A stretch of 64,000 nucleotides of DNA from Patescibacteria group bacterium. Its GTDB lineage: Bacteria > Patescibacteriota > Patescibacteriia > UM-FILTER-42-10. Position 1 is the stretch's first letter. The number at the start of each line of letters is the position of its first letter. The stretch lies in the NCBI GenBank assembly GCA_018825385.1, contig JAHJEX010000071.1, positions 1,547-65,546 on the forward strand, read 5' to 3'. A model generated the notes under the pieces. The model had not been told where the DNA came from. It did not search any database and was given only the letters and a program-made list of their open reading frames with translations. Made by a program: the position numbers and the translations under genes. Below are positions 2,166 to 49,846 of this stretch, one piece after another.

Positions 2166-2167
2166 AT

Positions 2168-3703
2168 TTATAGCTTTGTCACTATTCCTTTATCAGCATC
2201 CACTTCCACCAGATCTCCATTTTGTAAATGCTTCGTTATACCTTCAATCCCAACTATACAGGGTGTATTCTTTTCACGGGATACAATAACCGCGTGATTA
2301 GTTAATCCTCCATATTCAGTAATAATGCCACTTGCCTTTCTTAAGACAGGAACAAAATATGCGCTTGGAGCTTGAGTAACAAGAATCTGACCCTTTTTAA
2401 TATTTTTGGCATCTTTGGGAGCAAAGGCAACTATCACACTTCCCTTGATTTTTCCTAAACAAGCTGCCTTTCCTTTAAAGCTTGTTTGTTTATGTTCAGA
2501 TTTGCCCTGCTCAACAATCCTAATTTGTTGCTTGACTTTCTGACCCACGCTTGTTTTAACTTCTCCATAATAGTAAGTATATGAACAAAACTGCAATCTT
2601 TGTTTGATCTTTGCTTTACTAATTTTTTTATTATTCCTTAGATGGTCAACAATTTCCTGGTCAAGTAGGAATTTAAACTCCTGATAAGTAATTCCTAGCC
2701 GATTAGCAATTTCCAAATAGAGTAGCTTCAATAGATGAGTAGTATAGCCCTGAAAAGCATTATCGATAATTCGAAGATATACTGCTCTTCTTATTCCCTT
2801 GATTAGTAAGCCCGTTTTGTAATCAGGTTTCAATTTCTTGATTGCGACTTTTGCTTTATTTATTGTCGCCTCGTTATAGTCGTCGCCCATACGCTTTGCC
2901 TGGATACGGAAAGGTTCATTTTGAATAACAAACTTTTGAATATCTTGCCAAAGGTCTTTTTTGCTAATTGACTCAGCGTTTACTACTTCAGTTAGATATC
3001 CATATTTTTTTTGATGTCGATCAATCAGCACTTCATATTTTGGATAGTCCTTAAGAATCTTAATTCCTTCTATTTTAGCTTCTTTCTTGAAGATAGTATC
3101 TTTCTTTAATAGCTGAATAATTTTCAAAAATGCGTTACGCTCTTTGAATATTGGCGTCTTCCTATGCGGAGTAATGAGCAACGAAGTAAGTGAGGATATT
3201 TTATCAACACTTTGATTTTTTATTTTCCTTTTTACATAAGACTCAATAATTGGACCGAGGTATCGTTCCAAATAGTAGTCATAATGATCCATGAAAGAAT
3301 TATATTCTAGATGAGATCTGGCCTCTAAAAAGAGAGACGCTAAGGAAAAATCTGAAATGCTCTTATAATCCTTTTTGATAATTCTTTTTATGGCCAATAA
3401 ATCTCTTTTTGTATTCTGTTCATATGGCTTAAGAGTCTCAAGAATAAAAGACGGCCTTTTGTGAAACAGACTAACCATTGTTTTCTCAAGTATGTCTTGG
3501 TCCTTCTGACATAAATAGGCATATACTGTACCCTTTTTGTAGAAACCAACAAATACCTGAGGGGCATATCCTATAGCTTTTTTCCATTCATTTTGATATC
3601 TTCTGGTGAAAAATGGTTGCTCATCAAAGAGTGGCCAATTGCCAGACCAAAACCAGATCCAATTTACTTTTCTCCATTCTTCACCTGATAATTTCTGAGT
3701 CAT
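2168..3703 (-). CDS. PEP-utilising-enzyme mobile-domain protein, paralog 2
   Basis: C-terminus GGLTNHAVIVSREKNTPCIVG...NGDLVEVDADKGIV. The N-domain is paralogous to neighbours. Gene spacing is tight. Confidence 0.75.
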   Translation of the reverse strand: MTQKLSGEEWRKVNWIWFWSGNWPLFDEQPFFTRRYQNEWKKAIGYAPQVFVGFYKKGTVYAYLCQKDQDILEKTMVSLFHKRPSFILETLKPYEQNTKRDLLAIKRIIKKDYKSISDFSLASLFLEARSHLEYNSFMDHYDYYLERYLGPIIESYVKRKIKNQSVDKISSLTSLLITPHRKTPIFKERNAFLKIIQLLKKDTIFKKEAKIEGIKILKDYPKYEVLIDRHQKKYGYLTEVVNAESISKKDLWQDIQKFVIQNEPFRIQAKRMGDDYNEATINKAKVAIKKLKPDYKTGLLIKGIRRAVYLRIIDNAFQGYTTHLLKLLYLEIANRLGITYQEFKFLLDQEIVDHLRNNKKISKAKIKQRLQFCSYTYYYGEVKTSVGQKVKQQIRIVEQGKSEHKQTSFKGKAACLGKIKGSVIVAFAPKDAKNIKKGQILVTQAPSAYFVPVLRKASGIITEYGGLTNHAVIVSREKNTPCIVGIEGITKHLQNGDLVEVDADKGIVTKL

Positions 3704-3705
3704 AA

Positions 3706-5154
3706 CTATACTTTCTTAATTATTCCATTTCCGGCATCTACTTCTATCATATCACCATCTTTTAGTAGTTTAGTGGCTATTTTTGTCCCAATAACGCATG
3801 GCACCTCGAGTTCTCTTGATACAATAGCAGCGTGACAGGTAATCCCTCCTGAATCTGTAATAATAGCTCCAGCCTTTTGCATAGCAGAAATAATTTGGGG
3901 ATTAGTAGAAGTTGATACTAAAATATCACCTTTTTTCATTTTCTTCATTTCTTCTGCCTCATCCACCCTCCTCACAATTCCTCTAACCTTCCCTGGAAAA
4001 GCGGTATTGCCCTCAATCATTTTGAGGTTTGGATTAACATATAGAGATTTTTTTATTTCCTGAGATAGTTTTATTACACTTTTTCCTGATAATACCCTGT
4101 ATTTAGTGCCTTTAAAAAAAACAACCGATTCTTTGATTCTTTCATTCATTAAATCCGGATCAATATTTTCTTTCAGTAGCGCATCCTTCATTTCATTTGG
4201 AGCAATCATAAAAGCCTGAATTTTAGATAAATGATTTCTTTTTGCTACTTCCCGAACAAAATCTTCCATCATTAAATGGGCCTTTTGATTCAAAAACTTT
4301 CGTTCGAACTTCCAGAAACCCAAAGTCCTTAAGGCATTAATTATCCTATTCTCCTTGGCGTTTAATTTGAGTTCCTGCTCTATTTTTCTTTGGTTATTCC
4401 TCAATATACCTGCTGATTTCATTTTTTCTTTAATCAGCTCACCAACTTTAATCTTTTGCTTCGGTAAAGGATTTAAACGATTTTCAATATCTGCTTTTTG
4501 CCAGGCCGGACCATTATAACCATAGCCGACCCAGGCATATTGCTTCAAATGATCCGCAATTTTTCTGTCAGTCAAATCCTTGTTTAGTTGCTTGCCCCGC
4601 AAATCAAGTAATGCCAACTCTTCCCTGAATGCCACTGTTTCCCTTGGTGAAGAAGATAAAACCCGGAAGTACTCACCGAGTTTTTCGTTGTTCTTGCCAA
4701 GTTTCTGTTTAATTATTTGCTCGACTCTATTGCTCAATAACGACTCTTCCATTTCCGCCACCGTCGCCATTGTACTATAAGTCATTAAACTAATAAATTT
4801 GTTCAGCCAGTCCTGCCAACGATTATACAACTCTCCACCACACAATGAAGATAAATCACCTGACAGTTTTTCAGCTGCCTTGAGCATAATTGGTATTTCT
4901 TTTATGTTGGTCGCTTCAATTTTTTTTAGCAGCGCCTCATCTTTTTCTAAACGATTTAGAATTTTTTTTCCAGGAGTGACTAGCCCCCCTTGTGTTGTTA
5001 TGTAACTATACTCATGTTCTTTGTACCAACAACCAATCACATTATTTTTTACTCCAACTTTTTTAGCAGCATACTGCGCACACCACCAATATAACGCGGT
5101 TGGATATAAATAAGCGTTCTTATCATGAGCTAATTCTAGCCACTTGTAGGCCAT
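3706..5154 (-). CDS. PEP-utilising-enzyme mobile-domain protein, paralog 3
   Basis: C-terminus GGITCHAAIVSRELEVPCVIG...DGDMIEVDAGNGIIKKV. The last 61 nt (3701..3761) are identical to 670..730 of paralog 1. The AWVGYGYNGPAW motif is in the N-domain. Confidence 0.75.
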   Translation of the reverse strand: MAYKWLELAHDKNAYLYPTALYWWCAQYAAKKVGVKNNVIGCWYKEHEYSYITTQGGLVTPGKKILNRLEKDEALLKKIEATNIKEIPIMLKAAEKLSGDLSSLCGGELYNRWQDWLNKFISLMTYSTMATVAEMEESLLSNRVEQIIKQKLGKNNEKLGEYFRVLSSSPRETVAFREELALLDLRGKQLNKDLTDRKIADHLKQYAWVGYGYNGPAWQKADIENRLNPLPKQKIKVGELIKEKMKSAGILRNNQRKIEQELKLNAKENRIINALRTLGFWKFERKFLNQKAHLMMEDFVREVAKRNHLSKIQAFMIAPNEMKDALLKENIDPDLMNERIKESVVFFKGTKYRVLSGKSVIKLSQEIKKSLYVNPNLKMIEGNTAFPGKVRGIVRRVDEAEEMKKMKKGDILVSTSTNPQIISAMQKAGAIITDSGGITCHAAIVSRELEVPCVIGTKIATKLLKDGDMIEVDAGNGIIKKV

Positions 5155-5155
5155 T

Positions 5156-6649
5156 TCAGATTTTTTTAATTATTCCTTCTAACATATCCATCTCCACTTT
5201 TTCTCCGTCTTTGAAAAAACGAGAAGCAAATTTAGTGCCAACTATGCAAGGGACTCCTAATTCCCTTGAAACAACAGCCGCATGGCAAGTCATACCACCA
5301 ATATCTGAAATAATTGCCTTAGCCTTTTTCATAACAGGCACAATATCAGGCGTAGTTGCAATTGAAACTAAAATTTCCTCTTGATTGAATTTAACCATTT
5401 CCTCCGGACCATTCACAATTTTTACTACTCCCCTTATTTTATCCCTCTTGTCAGCACATGCCACTTGTCCAGACAATTCTCTGCCATCATTACTAATTTC
5501 TTCTTTCTCGACATTATTTTCGACCCATTGTTTTGCTTCACTATTATATAAGAAGTTCTCCCCCTCTTCAGAGTCAAATAAAACACAATATTTCCATCTT
5601 CTGTTGAGAATATTTATATTCGGAAACTCGCCTGCATCCATGAAATGGTTCATTTCCCGCATTGTCATCATCCCGGCCTGTTTCATAGTTATTCCTTCTT
5701 TTGTGAGAAATGGTTTCATCAACTTATGAATAACATAGTTTGACAAAAACATCATAGGAGTACGAATAATTTTCACATAACTAATATTCTCTGCAACCCT
5801 AATAATTCTCATCTCACTATCTGATAGTTTCAGATGTTTTATAATGCCATCTCTTTGTTCCTTCTTCACCTGCGACTGCTTTTTCATTATTTGAATTTGT
5901 TCTAAAGGAGGAATATCGGAAGACAGCATAGTTATTAGAGAATCATAAGCTCCTGTAAGGCTATATTCAGGACCTGTATACCCATAAGTAACCCAAGCCC
6001 ATTTTGCAACATGTCGTTCAACTTTCCTTACTATTTTAAGGGGCAAATTATTCATTTCCAGTTCGTTACTATAAATTTCTTGAGCTATCTTTGCCAGATC
6101 TTCATGAACTTTTTGATCATATGTCTCTACATCAATAAATCCTAGAATAGAAAGATATTCATTTATTTGTCGTTTGTCTTCTATTTTAGATTTAATAAGT
6201 TTTTTTAAATCCTGGCTTGATCTCGCAGAACCTAATTCAATTATTGCCCCGGTGATACCATAAACACACAGTTCAAAATAAAGATTAAAGAAGACCTTTA
6301 TCACTTTTTTCCTCTTCAAATCATCTATTTTATGTTCCTCTAGATTTTTAAGGGTCTTTTTTGCAATATCATATATTTTCCCAACATATTTTTCTGAATT
6401 TTTTACTATACTCCGATCAAAACCCGGCTCGGTAATTAGTCTATTGTATACAAATTCACCCCAGTCATGCCATTCTTTCTTCAGAACCATAGCTCTAACT
6501 ATGCCTTCTGAAAATTCATATGCAATTCTTGGGATTCCTTTACCCACAAAAATCGCCAATTCTTTGGAGATAATTGCACGAACAATTGGGTTGAGACTCA
6601 AAATATCAACCCCGGGTTCCGAATTGAAGATAAAGTATCTTTTACTCAT
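5156..6649 (-). CDS. PEP-utilising-enzyme mobile-domain protein, paralog 4
   Basis: C-terminus GGMTCHAAVVSRELGVPCIVG...DGEKVEMDMLEGII. The N-domain has AKWAWVTYGYTGPEY. Confidence 0.75.
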   Translation of the reverse strand: MSKRYFIFNSEPGVDILSLNPIVRAIISKELAIFVGKGIPRIAYEFSEGIVRAMVLKKEWHDWGEFVYNRLITEPGFDRSIVKNSEKYVGKIYDIAKKTLKNLEEHKIDDLKRKKVIKVFFNLYFELCVYGITGAIIELGSARSSQDLKKLIKSKIEDKRQINEYLSILGFIDVETYDQKVHEDLAKIAQEIYSNELEMNNLPLKIVRKVERHVAKWAWVTYGYTGPEYSLTGAYDSLITMLSSDIPPLEQIQIMKKQSQVKKEQRDGIIKHLKLSDSEMRIIRVAENISYVKIIRTPMMFLSNYVIHKLMKPFLTKEGITMKQAGMMTMREMNHFMDAGEFPNINILNRRWKYCVLFDSEEGENFLYNSEAKQWVENNVEKEEISNDGRELSGQVACADKRDKIRGVVKIVNGPEEMVKFNQEEILVSIATTPDIVPVMKKAKAIISDIGGMTCHAAVVSRELGVPCIVGTKFASRFFKDGEKVEMDMLEGIIKKI

Positions 6650-8113
6650 AACTTTTTTATAAATCCTTTGTTGGCATCAACTTCTGCTAAATCACCATCT
6701 TTAAAAATTCGTGTAGCAATTTTTGTACCGATCAAGCAAGGTTTTTTTAGCTCTCGTGCAATAATAGCAGCGTGAGAAGTAATACCTTCTAAATCAGTCA
6801 CAATTGCAGCCGCCTGTTTCATGGCCGGTACGATCCCCGGGTTAGTCATATGAGAGATGAGAATATTACCCAGATGTATTTTACCAATTTCAGGAACAGT
6901 GTTAATAATTTTTACTCTTCCTCTTACCCTGCCACCATACGCCGCCTGGCCTTTAATAATTTCTGAAGATTCTTTTTGTAATTATTTGCTGATAGATTTT
7001 CAATTTCTTTCGGATTTTCTTTGCCTGTTTCCCAACATAAATGCTAGTTTCCTTACCTTGAGCAAAATGGATGCTATACTTTTGACGTTCGTTCGTTATG
7101 TTGGAATAATTTTTTCCCTCAAGTGCTTTTTTGAAATCTTCTGGTGCTAAAAAGCGTACTTGCTCTAAAGTTAAACCGGTTCTTCTACCAATCTCCCTAA
7201 ATATTCCTTCCATACAATAGTAACCATAAAACTGTGAATCCTTGCTGTAGAGCCGAATAAAAATTGAGTCCTGGACAATCTTGAAAATCTTTTTATGAGT
7301 GCGACCAATGTTATACTCTTTAAATAGCTTCTGTTGCTTTTTTACTATACCATGTAATTCATTACGCAGTTCATTTACTGTTTTAACTGCTCCTTTTCTT
7401 CGCATAACTTTGATTTCTTTTTTAAAATAGTCCAGAGATAATTTACTTCCTTGCAAACCATATTCAAGCCATTCATACTTTTTAGCATGCTTTGCAAGTG
7501 CTTTTTCTCTATTTATCTGATCATTTATCAAAGCTACTCTTGCTAGATCAAATTTCTCCCGAGTCCAATTACTTCTCCTTAGTGGCGTAATTAGGATTTG
7601 AAATGCTTCTTGAGGACTTGCAGTCAAATTCCTACTATGCCTCTGTTTAGATAAATAGTTATGTAGGTAATTCGTAACTAAATTGTCCGGTGTCTCGAGA
7701 AGCCACATAGGACCACGCGGTACATGCACATTTGCTTGTCCTATTTGAAATTTATCTACCCATGCTATCAATTGCTTATCTGATAGTTTTTCTGGATCTA
7801 GTTTCTTTACCTTATTATCAAAAACAAATAAATTATCAGCGTTTTGTTTATTAAGTTTATGAAGATCATCCCATGATTTCTGATCAGAAAAAAGTAGATC
7901 GAAATTGTGTTTATTAGTTCTTTCAAAATCATCTTTTGGAACAAATAAATTACAGGCAGAATTGATATATTCTGCCCAAGTATTTTCAACCCCAACCATT
8001 TTCCACAGTTTTGGCAATTTCGTAAGTCCCTCCCAAGTGATCACAACAAAAAGATAATTGGCATAATCTTCCTTTTCTAGCAAATACCATACTTTGTTAC
8101 AAGGAATTTTCAT
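6646..8113 (-). pseudogene. PEP-utilising-enzyme mobile-domain protein, paralog 5, split by a frameshift in an A5 run near 6940-6950 (ORFs 6953..8113 and 6646..6849)
   Basis: 6953..8113 encodes the paralog-type N-domain (EWLEYGLQGSKL). The frame of 6646..6849 extends upstream as ...EIIKGQAAYGGRVRGRVKIINTVPEIGKIHLGNILISHMTNPGIVPAMKQAAAIVTDLEGITSHAAIIARE, aligning with the G.A.PG.V.G.V+.I region of the other paralogs. Removing one A from acaaaaag restores a single reading frame. Confidence 0.65.
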
Positions 8114-17346: not shown

Positions 17347-18036
17347 TTAAAGAATATCGCTTTTCAATGATTTCTTCCACGCCATAAACATGTTCCAATT
17401 CTTTTTGTTTTTGTGCCAGCCGGTGGGATCAGCAAGGTAGGCTTTTTGGATTGCTATCGCTTCTGGAGGCATCTTTTTCGCCCTACACACGCATTCAAGC
17501 CATTCATGCCGATTATAAAGGGTGTCAAAAGTAATTCCAATTTTCTTTAATTGCTTTTTGAATTTCTGATTTTTCATGTGCCAGGGATCATTGATAACCA
17601 TCACATGTTTTATTTTTATCCCATCTTTTGCACAATCTTTAATAGCTTTTAACACTGTACCACCCAAAGCAATTACATCATCAATCAGCACGCCAACAGC
17701 ACCTGATTGATAATCACCTTCCACCCATTTTCTGCGTAAAGTGGATTTTTTTTCTTTATTCAAGTAGGCAAAAGGTATTCTGGTTTTTAAACTTGTCGCC
17801 AGAGCAATAGGAATGCCGGCCATTGGAATTCCTACAATCAGATCTACCTTACCACTCTGGTTGTATTTTCTAATTATCTTGCCCAATTCCCCGGAAATTA
17901 TTTCAACTACTTTAGGGTGAGAGTAAAGGCATCTGCTATCGTTGTAAAATGGCACAATGGCACCGGTAGTCGTTTGATTAAAAGGACCAACATAGATTTT
18001 CATTTTAGCCACTTCTCTTAAAACCTGCTTATTCAT
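17347..18036 (-). CDS. Type I phosphoribosyltransferase (orotate-PRTase-like) with a C-terminal W-x-K-N-x3-W extension
   Basis: The PRPP loop reads VGVLIDDVIALGGTV. The C-tail has DPTGWHKNKKNWNMF. Confidence 0.6.
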   Translation of the reverse strand: MNKQVLREVAKMKIYVGPFNQTTTGAIVPFYNDSRCLYSHPKVVEIISGELGKIIRKYNQSGKVDLIVGIPMAGIPIALATSLKTRIPFAYLNKEKKSTLRRKWVEGDYQSGAVGVLIDDVIALGGTVLKAIKDCAKDGIKIKHVMVINDPWHMKNQKFKKQLKKIGITFDTLYNRHEWLECVCRAKKMPPEAIAIQKAYLADPTGWHKNKKNWNMFMAWKKSLKSDIL

Positions 18037-18038
18037 AA

Positions 18039-18791
18039 TTAAATTTTATCAAAACTCTTATCAAAAATTAAATTCTTTTCCTTTATTGCTATCTTTTTAA
18101 AATTTTTCCAATTTGCCGGATTTTTCTGCCATGCAAATGGATCATCAATTTGTTTGATAATTAGTTCGCTTAGTTCTTTGCTGATGAAATTACTTTCTGC
18201 AGCATATTTCATTAATTCTGGCCAGGTCGTAAGAGCAACAAATTTGTATTTTTTATTTTCTCTCAGCCACTGTTGTGGTTTGCGATATTTTGATCCGTAA
18301 AACGCATCTAAAATAACCACCACTCCCTTCACTTTCAATCCTACGCCCTCTAGTACTTTTACAATTTCCTTTTTATCTCCACCTCTTGATATTGCATCGT
18401 CCACAATTACTACCGTTTGGTTATTTTTGTAAACTCCTTCAATAACGCTATTAGTAGTGTACCCCTTTGGTTCTTTTCTTAGATATAGGAAATCTTTTTT
18501 TAGTTGATTGGCAACAGATACTCCATAAGGTATACCGGCTGCTTCCCTGCTGGCAATTAGATCAGGATTAAGCTTCCTGACTTCCTTCGCCATCTCCTTG
18601 GCAATAACTTGTAAAACTTCATTTTTAGAAAATGCTTTGCGATTATCTGGATATAATGGGAAATAGCCGATTCGAGGACTCTTTAGCCGACAAGCCAAAA
18701 AATACTCCTTAAATAGCAATGAGTTTGCAGCTTTTTTATTCATATTTTTATCATAATAGTTTTGGAATCTCGGCAACGATGTCTGATGCAC
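18039..18791 (-). CDS. Orotate-PRTase-like phosphoribosyltransferase with a W-x-K-N-x3-W tail
   Basis: Motifs LYLRKEPKGYTTNSVIEGVY and VVIVDDAISRGG match the PyrE type. The tail has DPFAWQKNPANWKNF. Confidence 0.65.
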   Translation of the reverse strand: MHQTSLPRFQNYYDKNMNKKAANSLLFKEYFLACRLKSPRIGYFPLYPDNRKAFSKNEVLQVIAKEMAKEVRKLNPDLIASREAAGIPYGVSVANQLKKDFLYLRKEPKGYTTNSVIEGVYKNNQTVVIVDDAISRGGDKKEIVKVLEGVGLKVKGVVVILDAFYGSKYRKPQQWLRENKKYKFVALTTWPELMKYAAESNFISKELSELIIKQIDDPFAWQKNPANWKNFKKIAIKEKNLIFDKSFDKI

Positions 18792-19542
18792 TATAATTGT
18801 ATGATACTTTTTTTAGTAGCTTGTCTGCCGCTGCTCCATTCAAGTACGGCCCTGCACAAGCCGACAAAAACAGATCATTTGTGCAAGCAAGGGCCGCAAT
18901 TAAACCGGCTAAAACATCGCCTGTTCCTCCTTTGGTCATGCCCTGATTTCCGGTTATGTTAAATTTTACTAGCTTGGGAGTGGGAGAAGCAATAATATCT
19001 TTCTTCCCTTTCAATACTATTATACACCCAAATCGCTTTGCCATCTTCCGTACATTCAGCTCAGTAGCTTTGAGACCAAAGAGTATTTCAAATTCCTTGT
19101 GGTGAGGGGTAATTATGTGATTTTTATTCAGTAAACTCATATCCACTATTTTTAAAGCATCCGCATCCAATACAAACTTTTTTTGGGGAAATTTTTTAAG
19201 AAGGGCATTTAGCAATTTTCTTTCCTTAGCAGAAGTGCCTAATCCCGGGCCAGCCAATACAACATCTGATTTAATAATATATTCTGGAATATCAATTCTT
19301 GAAATAGTAATAAATTCGAACAGTTTAGGCTTTAGTTTTTTTATTACTCCATAGTTTTCCGAATCGGAAAAAATATATACAAGGTCAACTATCTTTGACG
19401 CGATAGTTGCGGCCAGCAATAATGCTCCGTGGTATTTCTTCGACCCACCTATAATAAAAAGTGAACCATTATCTCCCTTATGCGAACCGGATTTAGGTTT
19501 ATTCAATTTAGTTATTTCGTTTTTACTGACAATATTTTTCAT
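18751..19542 (-). CDS. nnrD: ADP-dependent (S)-NAD(P)H-hydrate dehydratase (YjeF C-terminal domain)
   Basis: The motifs HKGDNGSLFIIGGSKKYHGALLLAA and GGTGDVLAGLIAALA are read from the translation. Confidence 0.65.
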   Translation of the reverse strand: MKNIVSKNEITKLNKPKSGSHKGDNGSLFIIGGSKKYHGALLLAATIASKIVDLVYIFSDSENYGVIKKLKPKLFEFITISRIDIPEYIIKSDVVLAGPGLGTSAKERKLLNALLKKFPQKKFVLDADALKIVDMSLLNKNHIITPHHKEFEILFGLKATELNVRKMAKRFGCIIVLKGKKDIIASPTPKLVKFNITGNQGMTKGGTGDVLAGLIAALACTNDLFLSACAGPYLNGAAADKLLKKVSYNYSASDIVAEIPKLL

Positions 19543-20174
19543 ATCAACTTTTTCAGGTCTTTGATATTGTTGAAAACATGAATATGGTTTGTAATATTTT
19601 CAGGGAAGATTCCTTTTTCCAACATGGCATTATAAATGCTTTCCCAAAAACTGCTGATATAAACCTCCGGCGGAATTAAGCCTTGCTTTTGACTGGATTT
19701 TACATAACCAATTGCGCCGATCATTTCATCTAATGTACCGGTACCACCTTCATACACCACGACATGCGGTGCGGAAACAATCATCATTTTGCGGGTGAAA
19801 TAGTTGCGTACAATTGCCTTCGGGCCATAGGGTATGATTTTGTGATATTCACATGCTATCCCTAACACCATATCCGGTTCTGCCTCGGCAGCCGCAATCA
19901 TGGAACCGTAGTTTTCACCCCCGTTTATAATTACTCCTCCTTTTTTTACTACATATCTTGTAAACTCCGCAACGTCTTGGTAAACCTTATCCTCTGGAGC
20001 AAATGACGCTCCACCACAAATGCTTATCACCAATCCATTGTGGACAATTTCTGCTTCAGCAGGTTTTTTTGTATTTCTAACTACACATTCTCCTTTAGAA
20101 TTTTTTACTTTGCTCTCTTGAATTACGTTTCCAGGAAGTAGCATATTGTTTTCGGGTAGTAAGGATGACGTCAT
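19539..20174 (-). CDS. LOG-family (TIGR00730, cytokinin riboside 5-monophosphate phosphoribohydrolase-like) protein
   Basis: Motifs ISICGGAS, INGGENYGSMIAAAEA and VVYEGGTGTLDEMIGAIGY match the LOG PGGxGTxxE motif. Confidence 0.65.
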   Translation of the reverse strand: MTSSLLPENNMLLPGNVIQESKVKNSKGECVVRNTKKPAEAEIVHNGLVISICGGASFAPEDKVYQDVAEFTRYVVKKGGVIINGGENYGSMIAAAEAEPDMVLGIACEYHKIIPYGPKAIVRNYFTRKMMIVSAPHVVVYEGGTGTLDEMIGAIGYVKSSQKQGLIPPEVYISSFWESIYNAMLEKGIFPENITNHIHVFNNIKDLKKLI

Positions 20175-20179
20175 CCTTA

Positions 20180-21133
20180 CTACTCCCTTGTATTAATATC
20201 TGTTAATTCATCTGTAATCAAATCTGAAAGTGAAATCACTTTCAATTGACTAAATTTTTTTTCAGGCGGTAAGGCAATGGAATCAGTTACTACAATCTCT
20301 TCGAGACCGGATTTTTTGAGCCTTTGGATTGCCGGTTCGGATAAAACTGCATGGGTAGCTGCAAAATACATTTTATTTGTACCAAGCTTTTTGAGCAATC
20401 TGACGTTTTCCACTAAAGTTCCGGCTGTGTTTATTTCATCATCAATCATCACAACATTCTTTTTTGCGATATTTGCATTTTTCCCTGATACTGTTTTTCC
20501 CGCCTTTGGTGGGACCCCGCCGTAGGCGGTGGTAAGACTGCTCACTTTATCATGCTTGATTCTAATTTTTTTCATAACTAATAATGGAAGTCCCATGTAT
20601 GATGCAAATTTTCTTGAGCGAGCAATACTCCCTTCATCCGGAGCTACTACAATATCTATATCCTTTTTACGGAAATAGTCCGCAAACAATGAAAACGTAG
20701 ATATTTCTTTAACGGGAATTTTGTAAAATCTCTTTATTGCGGGGCTATGAAGATCAATAACAACAAGTTTATCGATTTTATTCGCTTGTAACAATCTCGC
20801 AATCACCTGAGCCGATACGGCATCCCCCTTTTTAGATTCCCTTTCTTGCCTGCGGTAAGGGTAAAACGACAAAACTACTGTTATTTTTTTCGGCTTTAAC
20901 CGCTTTACTGCATCCAGAATTAAAAACAGCTCTAATACATGTTCGTCTGACGGTATAGAGCCTGATTGCAATATTATGACTTCTTTTCCCTTCACATTCT
21001 CCTGCACATTCACATATTTTTCGCCATCACTGAATTTCTTGATTATAATATTTCCCAGTTCAGTATTCATCTGCTTGGCAATTTTTTTTGCCAGAGGGAT
21101 ATTTGAAGATCCGCTAAGTATAATTTTTTTCAT
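20180..21133 (-). CDS. prs: Ribose-phosphate pyrophosphokinase (PRPP synthetase)
   Basis: VVIDLHSPAIKRFYKIPVKEIS matches the DLHA..IQGFF.IPVD region. VVMIDDEINTAGTL is the PRPP-binding loop. The length is 317 aa. Confidence 0.8.
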   Translation of the reverse strand: MKKIILSGSSNIPLAKKIAKQMNTELGNIIIKKFSDGEKYVNVQENVKGKEVIILQSGSIPSDEHVLELFLILDAVKRLKPKKITVVLSFYPYRRQERESKKGDAVSAQVIARLLQANKIDKLVVIDLHSPAIKRFYKIPVKEISTFSLFADYFRKKDIDIVVAPDEGSIARSRKFASYMGLPLLVMKKIRIKHDKVSSLTTAYGGVPPKAGKTVSGKNANIAKKNVVMIDDEINTAGTLVENVRLLKKLGTNKMYFAATHAVLSEPAIQRLKKSGLEEIVVTDSIALPPEKKFSQLKVISLSDLITDELTDINTRE

Positions 21134-21804
21134 TTGCTTGACCCGTTAAAACCTTCTGATCTGGCTATTGCCACAAATTCATCCCATTTTTTTTGATCTT
21201 TTTGCCATATTTTCAGGTTCTTCCAGATATCGTACATATAATTTGCCAGTTTTTTCGAAATATATCCGTTACTAACCATATATTTTACAAGATCATTATG
21301 CCTGACAAAAGAGTGAATAGTTATTTTATTCTTTTCATAAAAAGGAAGATGCCCAACTCCCGCATCATATAGAACCAGAACGTGGTTTACAACCAGACCT
21401 TTTTTTTGGAGCTTTTTTATAAAGCGCTCTTTCGTTTTACCGGTGCCAATTCCGTCATCTACCACCAATACATTTTCTCCTTTTCTGTACAGTCCTTCCA
21501 GCAAAGTTACTATTGAACCGTCTTTTCTTTTCTTTTGTCTAAGATAAATAAATGGTTTGTGGGAAGCAAGAGATACAGCCATAGCTAGCGGGGTTCCTGA
21601 GACCATAGTTCCAGCTACCAAATCAATGTTCTTCCCTTTCATAAACTTCGCAATCTCTTCTGATACAGCCTGCATTTTGTCTGGATGAGAGTAAAGTTTC
21701 TTGCTGGTGATGTAAATAGGAGAAGGTTCGCCAAGTGATCCATAAAACTTTCCAAAAACAAAAAAGCCAAAGTCACTTAATAATTTTGCAATCCGCTTGT
21801 TCAT
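21130..21804 (-). CDS. Orotate-PRTase-like phosphoribosyltransferase with a W-x-K-N-x3-W tail
   Basis: The core reads SIVTLLEGLYRKGENVLVVDDGIGTGKT. The tail has KIWQKDQKKWDEF. Confidence 0.65.
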   Translation of the reverse strand: MNKRIAKLLSDFGFFVFGKFYGSLGEPSPIYITSKKLYSHPDKMQAVSEEIAKFMKGKNIDLVAGTMVSGTPLAMAVSLASHKPFIYLRQKKRKDGSIVTLLEGLYRKGENVLVVDDGIGTGKTKERFIKKLQKKGLVVNHVLVLYDAGVGHLPFYEKNKITIHSFVRHNDLVKYMVSNGYISKKLANYMYDIWKNLKIWQKDQKKWDEFVAIARSEGFNGSSK

Positions 21805-21893
21805 AAATTAATTTGGTCAATAAACGTACTATACTATTGTAGTATATATTATTAAAAGAATAAAGGAGGAAGAATAGTAAATATTTGCGAGAA

Positions 21894-21972
21894 ATCCCGC
21901 ATATGCGGGATGACGAAGCAATCCCGTTTCAACTCAAAACCTGTTCCGAATAAGGAGCGGGATTGCTTCGTC
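21894..21972 (-). promoter_or_regulatory. Structured leader with mutually exclusive hairpins upstream of PRTase gene 21130..21804; candidate attenuator, riboswitch-like element or terminator of 22026..22772
   Basis: A perfect palindrome atcccgcatatgcgggat lies at 21894-21911. It is directly followed by a 15-bp-stem hairpin, gacgaagcaatcccg (21912-21926) paired with cgggattgcttcgtc (21958-21972). The gggat/atccc segments allow alternative pairings. Confidence 0.3.
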
Positions 21973-22025
21973 ACTCCTATTTTAAAATAGTAGCTCCTCG
22001 CAATGGTTACTGCTATTTATCCATT

Positions 22026-22772
22026 TCACAACTCCCTGTTCCTCCTCATTTCATCCACAGCCTCAATGACTTCTTGAGGAATAGGATAGTTTAGTTTCTT
22101 TAATACTTCAAAATAAGTATCCCATTTTGATGCATTTTTGCTCCAGGTTTCAGGATGTTTGGCATAATCAATAAAGTAAGGAAAAATTTCTTCATCAATT
22201 ATTCCTCGTTTATACAAACCTTCAATCAGCTCCTCCCAGGCGAACAAACAATAAATAGGCATGCCGCTGTTTTCTAATTTTTTCCGATCCTCATTTTCCT
22301 GAAAAAATTTAGCCATCGTTTTGAAAATCATTGCCAATGCAACTGTTTCTACTCCATCATGCTTCATATTCTCTATGAACAACTTCTTAGACCCTCCTTT
22401 TGCCATGAGGTCATCTACTAAAATAGCCTTATCACCAGGATTTGCGCCACCAGAAATAAATCTATCATCACCAGTTCCACGCATTTTTTTTCGAATATAA
22501 TTGAAAGGGACCCGTGTCTTATGTGACAGTATTGCGGCTAATGGCATGCCGGCTGTTTCTGCTCCCATTATTATATCAATTCCCTTCCAATCAATTAAAT
22601 TTTTTAATGTATCAGCCAATAAATCCATCAAGTCTGGGTTTGAAAAAGCTCGACGGTTGTCTAGCTGTATAGGAACAGGCCCCACTGTGACTTTGACCGG
22701 ATGTTTTACCACTATATTTGGAGACTTAGCATACAAATCAAATATTTTTTCTTTAGTTTTTTGATCAATCAT
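22026..22772 (-). CDS. Orotate-PRTase-like phosphoribosyltransferase with a W-x-K-N-x3-W tail
   Basis: The core reads PGDKAILVDDLMAKGGSKK. The tail has HPETWSKNASKWDTYF. Confidence 0.6.
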   Translation of the reverse strand: MIDQKTKEKIFDLYAKSPNIVVKHPVKVTVGPVPIQLDNRRAFSNPDLMDLLADTLKNLIDWKGIDIIMGAETAGMPLAAILSHKTRVPFNYIRKKMRGTGDDRFISGGANPGDKAILVDDLMAKGGSKKLFIENMKHDGVETVALAMIFKTMAKFFQENEDRKKLENSGMPIYCLFAWEELIEGLYKRGIIDEEIFPYFIDYAKHPETWSKNASKWDTYFEVLKKLNYPIPQEVIEAVDEMRRNREL

Positions 22773-22913
22773 TTTAGTTGATTCTTAAAAAATGGATAAG
22801 GAAATCGTGAAAAGGCTTCCAGAATCTGTTTTTTGTATTTAATGGTGGTCATATTTTAAGCTTATTTTAGCATAAAATTAGCTAACCCTGCTAGAAGCTA
22901 TTCTCTGTCAGGG

Positions 22914-22942
22914 TTGACAAAATGGGCAATCAGGTATATAAT
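22914..22942 (+). promoter_or_regulatory. Consensus sigma-70-type promoter (TTGACA-17 nt-TATAAT) driving the high-GC cassette gene
   Basis: TTGACA is at 22914-22919 and TATAAT at 22937-22942. A GGAGG Shine-Dalgarno sequence lies at about 23099-23103, 9 nt before the ATG at 23113. Confidence 0.5.
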
Positions 22943-23106
22943 GAGCTGTTAAAATAGAATACTGGAGAGAGTAGTAGGCATTCTGTTGCAAGTGATATAT
23001 CATCGTTTTCAATAGAGTGCCTATTTGAATGGCACGTTGACATATAGACCACTTCCGGCTTTGATTTCTATGAAGCTGGCTTAGGAGTTTTCTCTCAATT
23101 GGAGGT

Positions 23107-23679
23107 TTGCGAATGACGAAGCGTTTGTTTATTCAGGGCGACGGTAATCTCGGTATGGAGCAGGCAGCTACTGCTCAAAGAATCGGCCAGCTCCTAGCTG
23201 CAAAAGGCTGGGAAGCCAACGTGGGGAGTCACGGAGATCTGGTGCCGATCATGATGGAATCCGGCATCCCATGCCACGCACACGTTGCAAAAATGAGGGA
23301 GGATGTTGATTACGGCTGTCTTGCAAGCGTGACCGGCTGTAATCAGCTCGCGAGCGAACTGATTCCCTCATTGCCGACAACCAACGAGGACACCGAGAAG
23401 ATGCTGGCCTGGGGAATTCGCCTTGGCCTGTGGATGTCAACGTCCGACGCCTTCCTGTTCATCGGAGGTGCCGAAGGAACGCTGGCGCATCTCGTGCCCG
23501 TACTGGCATGGAACCGCAAGGCTCTAGCCAAGGAAGGTCGAGCCAAGAAGATCGTCGTGATCGGCTGGACGCGGGAACGAATCCAGGCACTGCAGATGCT
23601 CGGCATCTGCTCACCGTCCGATACTTGGCTCTCGTTTCACTCGAACGAGGAAAGTGTTGTTGAGTTCCTCACTTCGTAA
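23107..23679 (+). CDS. LOG/SLOG-family Rossmann-fold protein encoded in a ~56% GC foreign cassette (probable true start ATG at 23113)
   Basis: SDAFLFIGGAEGTLAHLVPVLAWNR aligns with the LOG PGGFGTLEEL..TW motif. The composition is strikingly GC-rich against the AT-rich flanks, and the region is filled with overlapping spurious ORFs on both strands as expected for high GC. Confidence 0.5.
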   Translation: MRMTKRLFIQGDGNLGMEQAATAQRIGQLLAAKGWEANVGSHGDLVPIMMESGIPCHAHVAKMREDVDYGCLASVTGCNQLASELIPSLPTTNEDTEKMLAWGIRLGLWMSTSDAFLFIGGAEGTLAHLVPVLAWNRKALAKEGRAKKIVVIGWTRERIQALQMLGICSPSDTWLSFHSNEESVVEFLTS

Positions 23680-23717
23680 ATACATGATCTTTCGCGGAAA
23701 TTACTCCGCACCCCCTT

Positions 23718-23772
23718 ACGCATCAAACTGTCTTCGGACGGGGCGATGCGTAAGGGTATTTATTTTGTCAAA
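23718..23772 (+). terminator. Rho-independent terminator of the high-GC cassette
   Basis: A 12-bp stem, cccttacgcatc paired with gatgcgtaaggg, is followed by a T-rich tail gtatttattttg. Confidence 0.5.
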
Positions 23773-24803
23773 ACTCTCCTACACCAATCAGCTGTTGCAT
23801 TTTTTTTACTTGTCACTAGTGCTAGTCCTGTTTCTCTTATTCTACTTTCCCACTGAGGCCACTTTTCATAATATGAGCCAGACTTACCATCAGTTCGTGA
23901 GACCATATACACGCCCATCCACATTACAATCCTTTTTACAATTCCTTTAACATGGTACTCTGAGACGCTATGTGATTTCATTGTATTTATGTATGATTTC
24001 ACAAATCTTCTAACAAAGTTACGGCAATCTTTGGTGATCTTCTCTTTTCCTTCTAATGATTTGATAACCCATTGTGCTAAAAAGACGCCATTATCAAGAG
24101 CAGGATCATGATGCATAGTGAAGTCAAAATCTATTGCAGTAAAATCAGTTTGACTGATAAAAATATTTCTGTGCACTGGATCTCCCCAAACAAGAGCTTT
24201 TTTCGTTTTTTTGGTTTGGTTTACAAATTTGTTAATCACACTTCTGTCTACATATTTTTTTACTCCAAATACCAACCAATTCGTCCATAATTTATAGATT
24301 CTTTTCTGCCAAGCTGAATTATCAAACATTGGTGGTGTATTATATGTCTTGCCGTGCAAATTTCCAAAAAAAACGCCAAATTTGTTTGCGAGTTGGTGAT
24401 ATACTTTATCTTTTTCAAATTCTTCAATCAGCATCTTTCTATTTCCTTGAACATCCAGCATTACCGAAATACAATTTTTGTAATCAACATACAAAACATG
24501 GGGTACAATTTTTTTCCCCAACAAAGATTCCAGAAATTTTATTTTTTCGCTCTCGACAACTGTTCTTATTGGCTCAACTTTGATCTCTTTGTTTCTCTTA
24601 ATATGCCCACGGGACTGTTTTAAGTATAGGATTTTTTTACCCTGACTGGTTTGACAATCTGCCCTATAAATAAAACTAGCGTTAGAGTACTTTGTTACTT
24701 CCTTGACGCTTGTAACTTTTTTTAGTTCAAATGGGAACTCTTTTGCAGAATCTTTCAGGAAACGCAGTATATTCTTTTCGTTTAGAATAAGTCTTTTTTT
24801 CAT
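23760..24803 (-). CDS. Protein-kinase-like-fold phosphotransferase (aminoglycoside/choline/MTR kinase APH family-like)
   Basis: WGDPVHRNIFIS matches the HGD.H.GN catalytic loop. AIDFDFTMHHDPALDNGVFLA matches the IDxE...GDP.YDLA motif. Confidence 0.45.
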   Translation of the reverse strand: MKKRLILNEKNILRFLKDSAKEFPFELKKVTSVKEVTKYSNASFIYRADCQTSQGKKILYLKQSRGHIKRNKEIKVEPIRTVVESEKIKFLESLLGKKIVPHVLYVDYKNCISVMLDVQGNRKMLIEEFEKDKVYHQLANKFGVFFGNLHGKTYNTPPMFDNSAWQKRIYKLWTNWLVFGVKKYVDRSVINKFVNQTKKTKKALVWGDPVHRNIFISQTDFTAIDFDFTMHHDPALDNGVFLAQWVIKSLEGKEKITKDCRNFVRRFVKSYINTMKSHSVSEYHVKGIVKRIVMWMGVYMVSRTDGKSGSYYEKWPQWESRIRETGLALVTSKKNATADWCRRVLTK

Positions 24804-24885
24804 ATTACATTTATTTTAACTTTTAAAGAGCCTGCTGTAAACCCAAAGAAAAAAGGCCTCTCATCCATAAATGGACAGAGGCCAC

Positions 24886-25803
24886 TCATTCAGCAAGTGC
24901 TGCCAAGAAGATTTCATACTCTTCTCTAGTGAGACCGACTGTTCCCATCTCAACCCCCTCTGGCTTGAAGGAGCCGTGGTCGTCAGATCCACCGGTTACA
25001 ATAAAACCGCAGTCTGTAGCGATATTCAGGAGCTCATGGACCGTCGCATCATCATGCAAGGGATAATGGACTTCAATTCCATCCATCCCGAGATCTCTCC
25101 ACTCGTAGAGCTCCGCTTTTGACGGCATCGTCCTGGGACGTTTTTTAGCCGCCAAATGCGCTGCGACCGATTTTCCACCGGCCTGTCGAATCAACTCTAT
25201 AGATCGTGATAAGAGTATGGTCTTTTTGGGCGGGAGGGTGTTTGCATTGACCACCCGGTCATACGCTTTTCGGAAGGCGCGATAGCTCATCTGAAGCGGG
25301 TCAGGCAGACAACCAGCATTAACAAGCGTCATCTTCAAAGCAGCCTGAGTTACAAGGAGCTGAGTCAGATCAATCTCAGCAAGTCTCTCCCGTGGCACTC
25401 CGGCCGCCAAAGCAAAAACATCTTCAGGATCAATGTGGAGATCATGAACCCGGGCAATGTTTTTGCAGGCTTCTCGTATCCGATTAAGTCGAATACAAGA
25501 TATCCCCGCAAGCGCCTCACTTAACTCACGGCTGTCTGCATCGATGTTATAACCCAGTAGATGAATTTCATGTTCTCCAGCTTGGGACGAAATCTCTACT
25601 CCGGAATGGAAGATGAGGCCATGCTTTTTGGCAGTTGCTTCCGACTCCGCCACTCCTGCCATAGTATCGTGACTAAGAATTGTCAGAGCGCCGATCCCCC
25701 TATGCTTAGCCAGTAGGCAAATTTCCTCCGGACTACGAGAGGAATCATTGCCGGGGTAGTTCCGGTGAATATGCAGATCAGCAAAAATCTTTCGTTTCGA
25801 CAT
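24886..25803 (-). CDS. PHP-domain metal-dependent phosphoesterase
   Basis: The N-terminus reads FADLHIHRNYPGNDSSRSPEEICLLAKHRGIGALTILSHD. The C-terminal region reads GGSDDHG. GC is noticeably higher than the local average by eye. Confidence 0.6.
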   Translation of the reverse strand: MSKRKIFADLHIHRNYPGNDSSRSPEEICLLAKHRGIGALTILSHDTMAGVAESEATAKKHGLIFHSGVEISSQAGEHEIHLLGYNIDADSRELSEALAGISCIRLNRIREACKNIARVHDLHIDPEDVFALAAGVPRERLAEIDLTQLLVTQAALKMTLVNAGCLPDPLQMSYRAFRKAYDRVVNANTLPPKKTILLSRSIELIRQAGGKSVAAHLAAKKRPRTMPSKAELYEWRDLGMDGIEVHYPLHDDATVHELLNIATDCGFIVTGGSDDHGSFKPEGVEMGTVGLTREEYEIFLAALAE

Positions 25804-26083
25804 TACGATCCTCCTCTCGCAAACAGGGAAAAGTCAAAGGGCGAATGTCTCTTATGAGACACTGCACAATAGCAATCAATTGCTAGTTTGTCAATATCAT
25901 AACAGACCCTTTAATAAAAAAATCGGGATTATTAGCCCGCCTTTTATAATGATATCTGTAAATCTGAACTGTAACATAGGTGGCGAGTTTACTCGCCTAG
26001 ATATTTTGCCTTAGTCTATTGCATCAGGAAAACAACCTGTTCTCTCTAATAATCAGGAGAGCAAGCTCTCCACCTACTGGTTT

Positions 26084-40350: not shown

Positions 40351-41181
40351 TTAGTATAATTCTTCTTGTAAAGCCTGGTAATACAGAAGCTCCAACGTTT
40401 CATCATCTACCTGGCTTAGATCAGCCTCGCTAACTCCACTGCCAATTAGCAGTTGCCTGATTTGTGCCGCATCAAGTTGTTGCAGAGCATCAAGCGTAAT
40501 TTCCTGACCTGCTGAATCCGCCGGTGCAAGACTATCTGTCTGATTTGTAAGTTCTTGAGGGTCAATGCCTGTTTCCACCACTGTATCTTCATACACTGTC
40601 CTAAGCGTCTCATCATCCATAGCGTCAACAATATTTGCCGGCGCTCCCAATTGTTTCAAAGTATCTCTTAGCTCTCCTGCAGAAAGTTCATTCGTAGTAG
40701 TGGTAGTGACAACAGTATTTGTTAAATCTGACGCAGGTTCAGTTGCTACCGTTGTAATTACACAAACCTCGCCCTTTGGACAATTGGGGTCGTTTCCGCT
40801 GTCCAGCTCGTCTTTATCTGAAATATTGTCGCTGTCTGAGTCAGCTACATACGGACTGGTTCCATATATGTAAAGTTCATCATAGTCATTAAGCCCGTCC
40901 TGATCTGTATCCTTCTCTTTGAGAAAAACCAGCTGGTCATATTCCGAATCACTATTTGTCAGTGCATTTTGTGTATCTTCTCCATCGGAACCGACAAGAG
41001 GAGAACCTATTGTACCGGAAATTTGGAATACTCCCAGTACTATTGCGCTGAAACCAACAAACAGAAGTGCTCCAAAAATGATATTCTGCCTTTTTTGGGA
41101 GTCTAATTGTGATTTTTTGTTTTGATTTTTTTGGGGTGAGACTACATCCATAACCCTTCTATAGAGTGTAAAATAGCTCAA
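40351..41181 (-). CDS. Membrane-anchored protein with thrombospondin-type-3-like Ca-binding Asp repeats
   Basis: TM segment IIFGALLFVGFSAIVLGVF. Repeats DTDQDGLNDYDE and DSDSDNISDKDELDSGNDPNCP. Confidence 0.45.
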   Translation of the reverse strand: MSYFTLYRRVMDVVSPQKNQNKKSQLDSQKRQNIIFGALLFVGFSAIVLGVFQISGTIGSPLVGSDGEDTQNALTNSDSEYDQLVFLKEKDTDQDGLNDYDELYIYGTSPYVADSDSDNISDKDELDSGNDPNCPKGEVCVITTVATEPASDLTNTVVTTTTTNELSAGELRDTLKQLGAPANIVDAMDDETLRTVYEDTVVETGIDPQELTNQTDSLAPADSAGQEITLDALQQLDAAQIRQLLIGSGVSEADLSQVDDETLELLYYQALQEELY

Positions 41182-41264
41182 AAATAATCGTCCCCATTAT
41201 ATCATAATTACCCCAAAGTGTCAAACTGATAGTGCTTTCAATTGCCGATTTTTGTCTTGCTGTG

Positions 41265-43328: not shown

Positions 43329-43940
43329 TTAAAAAGTTATGCTGCCTCTCCTCAGAAGCACTATTTTTTTAGATGATGCCTTGACAATGGTTGAAGGTTT
43401 CACTTTTGGCAATTTGCCAATGTTGACTACTAGAGCAACTTTTTTTTCTAGGTTGGAAATTTGTTTTTGGATTGCTTTTACAGAATAACATTCTTTTTCC
43501 ATTGAGTCATTAGCACTAGTGCTAATAATCGGACCGCCTAGTCCTTTTGCAATTTCACGCGCAATAGAGTTTCCGGAAACTCGCATTGCTATAGTTTGTT
43601 TACCAGCTGTCAATAATGCCGGAATTCCTTTTTTCTTTTTTAGGACAAGTGTAAGTGCTCCCGGCCAATACTTTTTGGCCAGCATTGAAGAAACGGGATC
43701 AAATAATGCAAACTTTTTTGCCTGCTCTATATTTCCGACTATTACTGGCAGTGGAAAATTTGCTGTTCTTTTTTTGATTTGGTAAATTTTTTTGATAGTT
43801 TTTTTATTTCTTGCGTCACCTCCAATTGCGTATGCAGTTTCTGTGGGATAAATAATAACCCCCCCTGCTTCAAGGAGGGTAACAATCTTCTGTACAGTTT
43901 GCTTAGAAAGTTTTTTGTTCGAAACAAAAATTTGCTCCAT
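43329..43940 (-). CDS. tsaC: L-threonylcarbamoyladenylate synthase (YrdC/Sua5 family)
   Basis: YPTETAYAIGGDARNKKTIKKIYQIKKR...PLPVIV and ISTSANDS are read from the translation. Confidence 0.75.
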   Translation of the reverse strand: MEQIFVSNKKLSKQTVQKIVTLLEAGGVIIYPTETAYAIGGDARNKKTIKKIYQIKKRTANFPLPVIVGNIEQAKKFALFDPVSSMLAKKYWPGALTLVLKKKKGIPALLTAGKQTIAMRVSGNSIAREIAKGLGGPIISTSANDSMEKECYSVKAIQKQISNLEKKVALVVNIGKLPKVKPSTIVKASSKKIVLLRRGSITF

Positions 43941-49771: not shown

Positions 49772-49779
49772 ATACAAAA

Positions 49780-49818
49780 GCGCCCCCACACTTATAGTAA
49801 GCGTGGGGGCGCTTTTTT
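49780..49818 (+). terminator. Rho-independent terminator; GC-rich REP-like hairpin gcgcccccacac-ttatagtaa-gcgtgggggcgc followed by T6
   Basis: A perfect 12-bp GC-rich stem plus T-run lies immediately after the stop of the M23 gene. A near-identical element occurs at 61107-61140. Confidence 0.75.
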
Positions 49819-49846
49819 GATTAGGAAATGATATAATAAATCCACT

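Follow-up and report, generated by a model that had tools for sequence, protein, structure and literature searches.

An inherited and maintained GC-rich SLOG-fold gene in a phosphoribosyltransferase locus of Patescibacteria

Proteins of the SLOG superfamily (LOG, MCP, DprA) share a three-layer Rossmann-like fold. Among them, the LOG family (PF03641, COG1611) is defined by the cytokinin riboside 5'-monophosphate phosphoribohydrolases (N-glycosidases), includes the nucleotide 5'-monophosphate nucleosidases of the PpnN/YvdD type, and keeps the genomic company of nucleotide metabolism built on phosphoribosyl pyrophosphate (PRPP) and phosphoribosyltransferases (PRTases). In the Shosta defence system, a PRTase (ShosT) is encoded beside a DprA-like SLOG-fold protein (ShosA). 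In Bacteroidia the anti-Shine-Dalgarno sequence is sequestered, and rpsU retains a strong Shine-Dalgarno sequence (SD) for autoregulation. Here we describe a GC-rich gene (hereafter the focal gene; 23113–23679, + strand) that encodes a divergent protein of predicted SLOG/LOG fold, in a 64,000-nucleotide stretch of a Patescibacteria group bacterium (contig JAHJEX010000071.1, positions 1,547 to 65,546; hereafter the window). A reading of the sequence alone had taken this gene to have arrived very recently, by horizontal transfer from a donor of high GC. Our analysis favours, with a probability of roughly 0.6, an old, vertically inherited and maintained GC-rich unit of a PRTase locus, with selection on the transcript as the most likely force.

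The focal protein has the Rossmann-like fold of the SLOG superfamily in its predicted model, and shares with the LOG family an ungapped signature segment, the arginine of the MHxRK motif and a similar neighbourhood. It differs from that family in having no match to its profile, no catalytic glutamate, and an invariant glycine (G41) and tryptophan (W152) of its own; unlike DprA, it has one domain only (about 190 aa in all) and lacks the extensions of that protein. The locus resembles Shosta in that the genes of a SLOG-fold protein and of PRTase-domain proteins lie side by side. However, PADLOC models matched neither the focal protein nor the LOG gene designated LOG211 and found no Shosta components (two of the PRTases weakly matched PRTase_III-A), and the focal locus contains PRPP synthetase, LOG and kinases in a housekeeping-like synteny, not that of a sporadic defence island. 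The focal gene resembles the rare SD genes of Bacteroidia in carrying one conserved strong GGAGG among mostly SD-less genes; unlike rpsU it is not a ribosomal-protein gene, and its SD is joined to a GC-rich, over-structured coding sequence (CDS) and a long hairpin leader. Finally, it deviates from its surroundings as sharply as classical “alien” genes and genomic islands do, in GC, in GC at third codon positions (GC3), in codon usage and in amino acids. This deviation is nevertheless conserved in place at synonymous saturation with a near-constant offset, which is the opposite of amelioration. Our literature search found no description of this locus or phenomenon.

A GC-rich gene with a fixed place in the locus

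The focal CDS has a GC content of 0.561 (GC1 0.59, GC2 0.45, GC3 0.646); the 40 other large open reading frames (ORFs) of the window range from 0.33 to 0.50 in GC and from 0.24 to 0.47 in GC3. Its neighbours have about 36% GC and a GC3 of about 0.30, which places the focal gene about 20 GC points above them. It is the most extreme of 44 genes in GC3 (robust z 7.5), and the GC and codon statistics thus confirm the sharp departure from background that had been claimed. By segment, GC is 0.32 in the upstream intergenic DNA, 0.35 in the promoter, 0.39 in the leader, 0.56 in the CDS, 0.51 in the 3' untranslated region (UTR) with the terminator, and 0.36 in the abutting 3' end of the kinase gene downstream of the unit, so that promoter and leader barely exceed other intergenic DNA (0.35). 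The figure of about 56% GC that had been given for 22900–23772 holds for 23113–23759 (CDS, 3' UTR and terminator), and not for the interval as a whole (0.51).

C- and G-ending twofold codons, fourfold sites, CGN over AGR and CTN over TTR are all shifted GC-ward together, and the protein contains more Gly, Ala, Arg and Pro and fewer Phe, Tyr, Met, Ile, Asn and Lys. Since the shift is common to all codon classes and to the amino acids, it points to a pressure at the nucleotide level rather than to optimal-codon selection. Translational selection for optimal codons was rejected as the sole cause because G-ending, C-ending and first-position synonymous choices and amino acids move jointly. An effect of strand or replication orientation was also rejected: the + strand genes at 48482–50506 have normal GC, and a second GC-rich gene, of the PHP type (see below), lies on the - strand.

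The segment is not specific to one assembly. An independent JGI contig (L013, 4063 bp) corresponds to window positions 20980–25042 at 99.75% identity and covers both junctions, and the identical protein is present in NCBI under four accessions from four contigs, annotated as hypothetical and attributed to “Patescibacteria group bacterium”. L013 and the window show ten differences, of which eight fall within 78 bp at 21815–21892, an intergenic segment upstream of the PRTase gene 21130–21804; none is inside the GC-rich unit.

Upstream of the focal gene, the window has a - strand cluster (17347–22772) of four PRTase paralogues, an NAD(P)HX-dehydratase-like kinase, a canonical LOG (19539–20174, correctly recognised before and matching PF03641) and PRPP synthetase. 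The same run on one strand, with the focal gene alone on the opposite strand, is found in the other lineages, followed in order by a convergent APH-like kinase gene (23760–24803, - strand, in the window; a weak match to PF01636, and a conserved partner family-wide), a protein of ~450 aa, a membrane protein of ~1100 aa and a giant PA14 protein. Slot and orientation are kept in at least five other Patescibacteria lineages (loci L001, L005, L007, L009 and L014). In two distant loci (L011 and the Uhrbacteria contig L012; 30–34% identical) the gene also stands head-on within clusters of PRTase and APH-like kinase genes, and the APH-like kinase gene is next to or near the focal gene in all loci. This conserved neighbourhood supports the functional tie to the PRTase locus that had been suggested. 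The flanking proteins are 44–91% identical to those of the window and the focal protein 53–57%, with 45–79% among all six lineages. Pairwise distances of the focal protein group the lineages in the same way as those of its neighbours ({L001, L014} and {L005, L009, L007}, with the window between).

Homologue searches gave 8 matches in 5.8 billion clusters and 62 representatives in 1.84 billion. All family members with a named taxon were Patescibacteria. No closer homologue from a GC-rich genome was found in the donor search (5.8 billion plus 1.84 billion proteins), leaving the postulated high-GC donor without a candidate, and the search of viral contigs found no relatives.

The anomaly itself is shared. 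Orthologues in L001, L005, L007, L009 and L014 have a GC of 0.56–0.60 and a GC3 of 0.60–0.72 between flanks of 0.35–0.42, and in none of these loci does another gene stand out more in GC3. The GC-rich block of six lineages begins at the start codon and ends at the terminator (leader 0.39–0.47, kinase 3' end 0.36). Its limits are those of the translated and terminated stretch of the transcript, and a force bounded by the transcript is therefore the simplest reading. At conserved fourfold codons, third positions of the window and the other lineages agree in 29–38% of cases, where full saturation predicts 25–31%; the fourfold sites of the kinase and PRTase genes are saturated to a similar degree. 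GC at fourfold sites (GC4) is shifted relative to the pooled neighbours by 1.01, 1.24, 1.39, 1.19, 0.89 and 0.99 logit units in the six lineages and by 1.03 in L012, and the background GC4 of these seven lineages spans 0.25–0.65. The lowest focal GC4 (0.47) is that of L014, the most AT-rich genome. Such a near-constant offset on a variable background, near saturation, argues for a steady GC-favouring bias (S ~1) and not for the decaying scar of a transfer: the composition is maintained, not leftover. The excess is missing in clade B, where L011 has a logit shift of -0.33 (not significant) and L010 is not GC-rich.

We also found that the mRNA of the gene folds more than its codons demand. Compared with permuted synonymous codons, the CDSs of the six GC-rich orthologues gave folding z-scores of -2.3, -4.1, -5.1, -1.7, -4.3 and -3.9, and compared with dinucleotide-preserving synonymous shuffles -2.9, -3.4, -3.4, -2.4, -3.4 and -3.3. 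Twelve control genes ranged between -2.5 and +2.0, and the L011 copy, which is not GC-rich, was close to 0.

Expression signals of the unit

A sigma-70-type promoter precedes the gene at 22914–22942 (+), with TTGACA at 22914–22919, a 17-nt spacer and TATAAT at 22937–22942; all 12 of 12 positions match, as the sequence-only reading had noted. The two boxes are kept in all orthologues and in distant family members. A perfect TTGACA-17-TATAAT occurs twice in the 64 kb, where 0.09 are expected. The other copy (41196–41224, - strand) lies just upstream of the native AT-rich gene 40351–41181, which heads an operon with a 3174-aa PA14 protein; consensus sigma-70 promoters are therefore native to this genome.

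The 5' leader (22948–23112, +; ~165 nt) folds into two hairpins in the RNAalifold consensus of six orthologues: P1 (22974–22995 / 23003–23024, ~20–22 bp) and P2 (23055–23062 / 23073–23079). In this small set, and for a structure derived from the same alignment, 10 of the 29 consensus pairs have compensatory changes, and 88.8% of cells are paired, against 39–45% with slid partners. Much of the leader can be aligned from lineage to lineage, and a covariance model of it matches solely upstream of this gene. In Rfam 15 the leader matches no known RNA family when the window is searched at gathering thresholds, and the search of 22750–23850 at E≤10 gave chance-level matches only (E>2). We considered a riboswitch-like leader and set it aside: pairing of the P1 3' arm with downstream GGCAC or TAGACAC gives 5–7 bp, against the ~20 bp of P1, and there is no conserved terminator or SD-sequestering helix.

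The SD, GGAGG, is at 23101–23105 (+) as described before, 7 nt ahead of the ATG at 23113. The 190-aa ORF that had been proposed would start at TTG 23107, too near the SD; the start is ATG 23113, giving 188 aa, and the orthologues have their N-termini at the equivalent position (MTKR or MP(H/R)V). Only 2 of the 41 large ORFs of the window carry GGAGG, namely the focal gene (-10.0 kcal/mol to the anti-SD) and the PHP gene (-12.0); LOG211 has a weaker GGAG (-7.9 kcal/mol). Rfam found no rRNA gene in the window. At least 38 of the 41 ORFs have no SD, in agreement with the earlier remark that native genes essentially lack it. Upstream regions are A/T-rich and SD nearly absent across these ORFs, and also in L001, L005, L007 and L011, which suggests that SD-independent initiation is the norm in this lineage. 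In a published survey, about half of Parcubacteria are reported to have a 16S rRNA that lacks the anti-SD motif (PMC9297842). Anti-SD pairing of the focal gene ranges from -9.3 to -11.0 kcal/mol in L001, L005, L007, L009, L011, L012 and L014, and is near 0 for almost all neighbours in those loci. A strong SD is kept in every family member examined, including the L011 copy with native GC. Since it persists there, the SD is a family trait and not a foreign mark.

Downstream, an intrinsic terminator (23713–23767, +) consists of a perfect 12-bp stem (23713–23724 / 23745–23756), an inner 5-bp hairpin and a T-rich tail. Its fold has -37.2 kcal/mol (z -5.8), and it is kept in the orthologues. The 12-bp stem had been seen correctly, with coordinates (23718–23758) off by a few bases. 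The T-tract shares bases with the stop codon (23760–23762) of the kinase gene, which converges on the unit and whose last codons (LTK and stop) are conserved, so that the unit is interlocked with its neighbour. The signals agree with the earlier description of a self-contained expression unit.

Between gene and terminator, a small 3'-UTR hairpin, GCGGA...TCCGC (23694–23709, +), occupies the place where L005, L007 and L009 have an extra ORF. This ORF (6593–6724, + strand, in L005, with + strand equivalents in the other two) encodes a conserved 43-aa membrane peptide with two hydrophobic helices (MGFIKPVALLLSLVCLLVATKNHRSDGSLATIGTLLLIVGAMA), has its own SD and a GC3 of 0.70, and precedes the shared terminator. 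It is not present in the window, L001 or L014, which have the small hairpin alone. The slot directly upstream of the unit also varies: L007 has a 94-aa GIY-YIG endonuclease-like gene (5407–5691, -), L001 (5069–5767, -) and L014 (2085–2783, -) encode a 232-aa protein without Pfam match, and the window has no gene there.

The encoded protein and its surroundings

The focal protein (188 aa; 23113–23679, +) was assigned to the SLOG/LOG fold by AlphaFold2, Foldseek and motif alignment. The AlphaFold2 model, built from an 8-sequence alignment, has a pLDDT of 89.2 and a pTM of 0.86. Foldseek against the PDB gave 61 matches at E≤0.001, and the best 50 of the 61 are LOG-like proteins, MCP, DprA and ShosA. 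The top matches are YvdD (1t35), the LOG of C. glutamicum (5its), TT1465 (1wek), the LOG of P. aeruginosa (5zbj) and the M. marinum protein 3sbx, with 2iz5, 6y01 (MCP), 4ljk (DprA) and 8zva (ShosA) further down; TM scores are 0.6–0.72 at 11–18% identity, and 0.65–0.72 for the LOG structures. The LOG/SLOG-like fold first read from a short motif is thus borne out, and the motif itself aligns without gaps with the LOG signature PGGxGTxxE (SDAFIALPGGYGTLEEL in the At2g37210 LOG, SDAFLFIGGAEGTLAHL in the focal protein). Sequence similarity is faint: in a comparison of the profile with PDB sequences the best match, again the At2g37210 LOG, had an E of only 0.19, and no Pfam or NCBIfam model matched the focal protein at E≤10.

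In the family the motif takes the form [PAG]G[RAD][EK]GT[LMI]A[HQ], in which the second Gly is usually Arg. At the position of the catalytic Glu (126 in a 44-member alignment), 35 of the 44 members have His, 6 have Gln and none has Glu. R103 aligns, when the ungapped alignment is extended, with the arginine of the LOG MHxRK motif, which contacts the ribose 5-phosphate; 41 of the 44 have it, and all 44 share G41 and W152. The members thus appear to form a new and divergent family of the SLOG fold, which would combine a nucleotide pocket like that of LOG with a changed chemistry. By sequence, the focal protein is not a close paralogue of the native LOG encoded 3 kb away (hhalign E 0.26, not significant). 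Its constant association with PRTases, PRPP synthetase and the kinase supports a role that involves a ribose-phosphate or nucleotide ligand, and we infer from model and neighbourhood that it may act on a nucleotide or ribose-phosphate compound that the adjacent PRTases produce or consume, either cleaving it as a variant hydrolase or binding it as a binding or regulatory protein.

The surrounding locus holds further features. In the window, L001, L005, L011 and L012, each locus has 4–6 paralogous type-I PRTases of ~225–250 aa with a Trp-rich C-terminal extension (e.g. ...W.KN...W..F), accompanied in some loci by NAPRTase, and by several proteins of 490–530 aa in which the PEP-utilizer mobile domain is the only one found. 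This multi-PRTase locus is conserved across Patescibacteria and appears to be undescribed. The window further contains four tandem paralogue-like ORFs of 482–511 aa (675–6649, -), and an IS200-like Y1 transposase gene (PF01797; 16565–17131, -) between the PEP-utilizer genes and the PRTase cluster, which is not at the orthologous position in L001.

A second GC-rich unit lies beyond the kinase gene. It encodes a PHP/TrpH-like phosphoesterase (24886–25803, -; GC 0.50, GC3 0.47) with a GGAGG SD, a TTGACA-17-TG-TATTGT promoter near 25866–25894 and its own terminator near 24800–24885. Its mRNA has folding z-scores of -3.3 and -2.3 relative to synonymous shuffles. The gene is not in the orthologous loci (L014 has an unrelated AT-rich gene there), and its best homologues reach no more than 34% identity once a 99% self-match is set aside. 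Unlike the focal gene, this unit looks like a true lineage-specific insertion.

Transfer, biased conversion or selection on the transcript

How did a single gene come to be so GC-rich, and what keeps it so? An assembly chimera, with reads of a GC-rich organism built into an AT-rich contig, would produce the abrupt change in composition, but L013 spans both junctions, the protein is in four NCBI records, and different projects have assembled the same arrangement in at least five other lineages. Mis-assembly, for which the sequence-only reading had proposed a check, is in effect excluded, and we give it a negligible probability. A very recent acquisition from a high-GC donor, together with its promoter, SD and terminator, agrees with the sharp difference of GC, GC3 and amino-acid composition from the flanks, with an SD in an SD-poor genome, with the strand opposite to the neighbours, and with the truly lineage-specific GC-rich PHP cassette 1.2 kb away. 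It fails on the conservation of slot, orientation and anomaly in at least six lineages whose synonymous sites are near saturation. The focal protein has also diverged no less than its neighbours, very large databases hold no donor-like homologue, SD and promoter are family traits even in an AT-rich copy (and the consensus promoter is native in style), and the terminator tail is interlocked with the kinase stop codon. Consistently, we found no related locus without the gene at the orthologous site, and no closer homologue outside the clade. We therefore consider recent transfer extremely unlikely. A single ancient transfer into the ancestor of the clade, with amelioration incomplete and the GC excess a slowly decaying relic, would fit the native GC of the clade B copies (L010, L011), by which GC-richness is not family-wide, and the low focal GC4 of L014. 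Fourfold sites so near the random expectation should, however, be at compositional equilibrium, and the logit offset of 0.9–1.4 holds over the whole range of background GC4, that of the separate clade C (L012) included. We take a very old transfer with unfinished amelioration as a serious alternative, though an improbable one.

A mobile cassette inserting repeatedly at this site, either a hairpin-ended passenger of IS200/IS605 type or an integron-like element, is suggested by the hairpins at both ends (22884–22915 and the terminator, 23713–23756), by a perfect 10-bp inverted repeat (TTGACAAAAT / ATTTTGTCAA, at 22914–22923 and 23762–23771) and by the Y1 transposase gene. But each contig carries a single copy, whose neighbourhood does not change, a search with the leader model yields no further ones, and the transposase gene is missing from the orthologous loci. 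The repeat arms are independently explained, one by the -35 box and the other by the C-terminal LTK codons and stop of the kinase gene. In most orthologues 8–9 bp of the repeat are kept; probably two elements, each conserved independently of the other, happen to match. We regard the mobile cassette as very unlikely. GC-biased gene conversion in a local recombination hotspot, which needs no selection on the transcript, remains a serious alternative, even if an improbable one in our estimate. The junction is structurally variable (the 232-aa gene in L001 and L014, the GIY-YIG gene in L007, the PHP or another insert past the kinase, the IS200-like gene), all codon positions and classes are shifted as a fixation bias would shift them, and an S of about 1 is within the range typical of biased conversion. 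This process would nevertheless have to respect the start codon and the terminator in six lineages, sparing the leader and the kinase 3' end. It does not predict folding in excess of synonymous shuffles, and the gene distances carry no sign of recent exchange.

We favour an old, maintained unit under selection on its transcript. The gene would then be a monocistronic unit, long resident in and integral to the PRTase/PRPP synthetase/LOG/APH-like kinase locus, and always transcribed head-on to the rest of it. Its GC-richness would be an equilibrium specific to the gene, with fourfold sites about one logit unit above those of the genome, and the maintaining force most likely selection on a GC-rich, unusually structured and probably long-lived mRNA. 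Initiation without an SD relies on open, AU-rich start regions, and a highly structured mRNA would be a poor substrate for it; in an SD-poor genome such an mRNA would need, and so would have kept, a strong SD for translation. This would explain why a sole strong SD is retained.

Several observations weigh against this explanation. L012 is equally GC-enriched and has no excess folding (z +0.8 and +1.2), and an AT-rich control gene (43329–43940, -; 203 aa) also reaches -2.5 and -2.0. Several of the six orthologues are related pairs, so that their z-scores are not fully independent. No specific structure is conserved in the CDS: the alifold z is -2.0, against -2.25 for the kinase gene, and among high-probability pairs no CDS column pair is common to at least four of the six sequences. 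Any selection would thus be for general structuredness. Finally, the focal protein has no sequence-level match to any curated family, and its putative activity is read from fold and neighbourhood. On balance, the folding results support, without proving, transcript-level selection for a generally structured and presumably stable mRNA, and we infer that structure or stability of the mRNA may be the selected trait.

A more speculative version, which we consider doubtful, would make the composition a regulatory device: a GC-rich, over-structured, SD-dependent mRNA in a lineage that normally initiates without SD. Synthesis of the SLOG protein would then be confined to a certain cellular state, such as an altered availability of ribosomes or anti-SD, or of G/C relative to A/U supply. 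The PHP/TrpH-like cassette, at a distance of 1.2 kb, has the same traits (GC-richness, GGAGG and excess folding) and would join the focal gene in this class of expression. If true, such a device would couple expression to the nucleotide pools that the PRTase cluster manages in an obligate salvaging symbiont.

Whatever the force, atypical GC and codon usage, routinely taken as proof of recent transfer, is here a stable inherited property of one gene. This calls for caution with composition-based transfer calls in Patescibacteria, and offers a natural case in which to ask what holds one bacterial gene about 20 GC points above its genome, be it transcript selection, biased conversion or another force. 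The analysis also defines a new 5' leader with covarying hairpins, and a conserved SD of a kind that is rare in this lineage. Judging from sequence and synteny, the gene belongs to a SLOG/LOG-like family that lacks annotation and has a changed catalytic motif. It is a constant part of a conserved multi-PRTase/kinase locus, which probably has a central place in the nucleotide salvage of these reduced symbionts.

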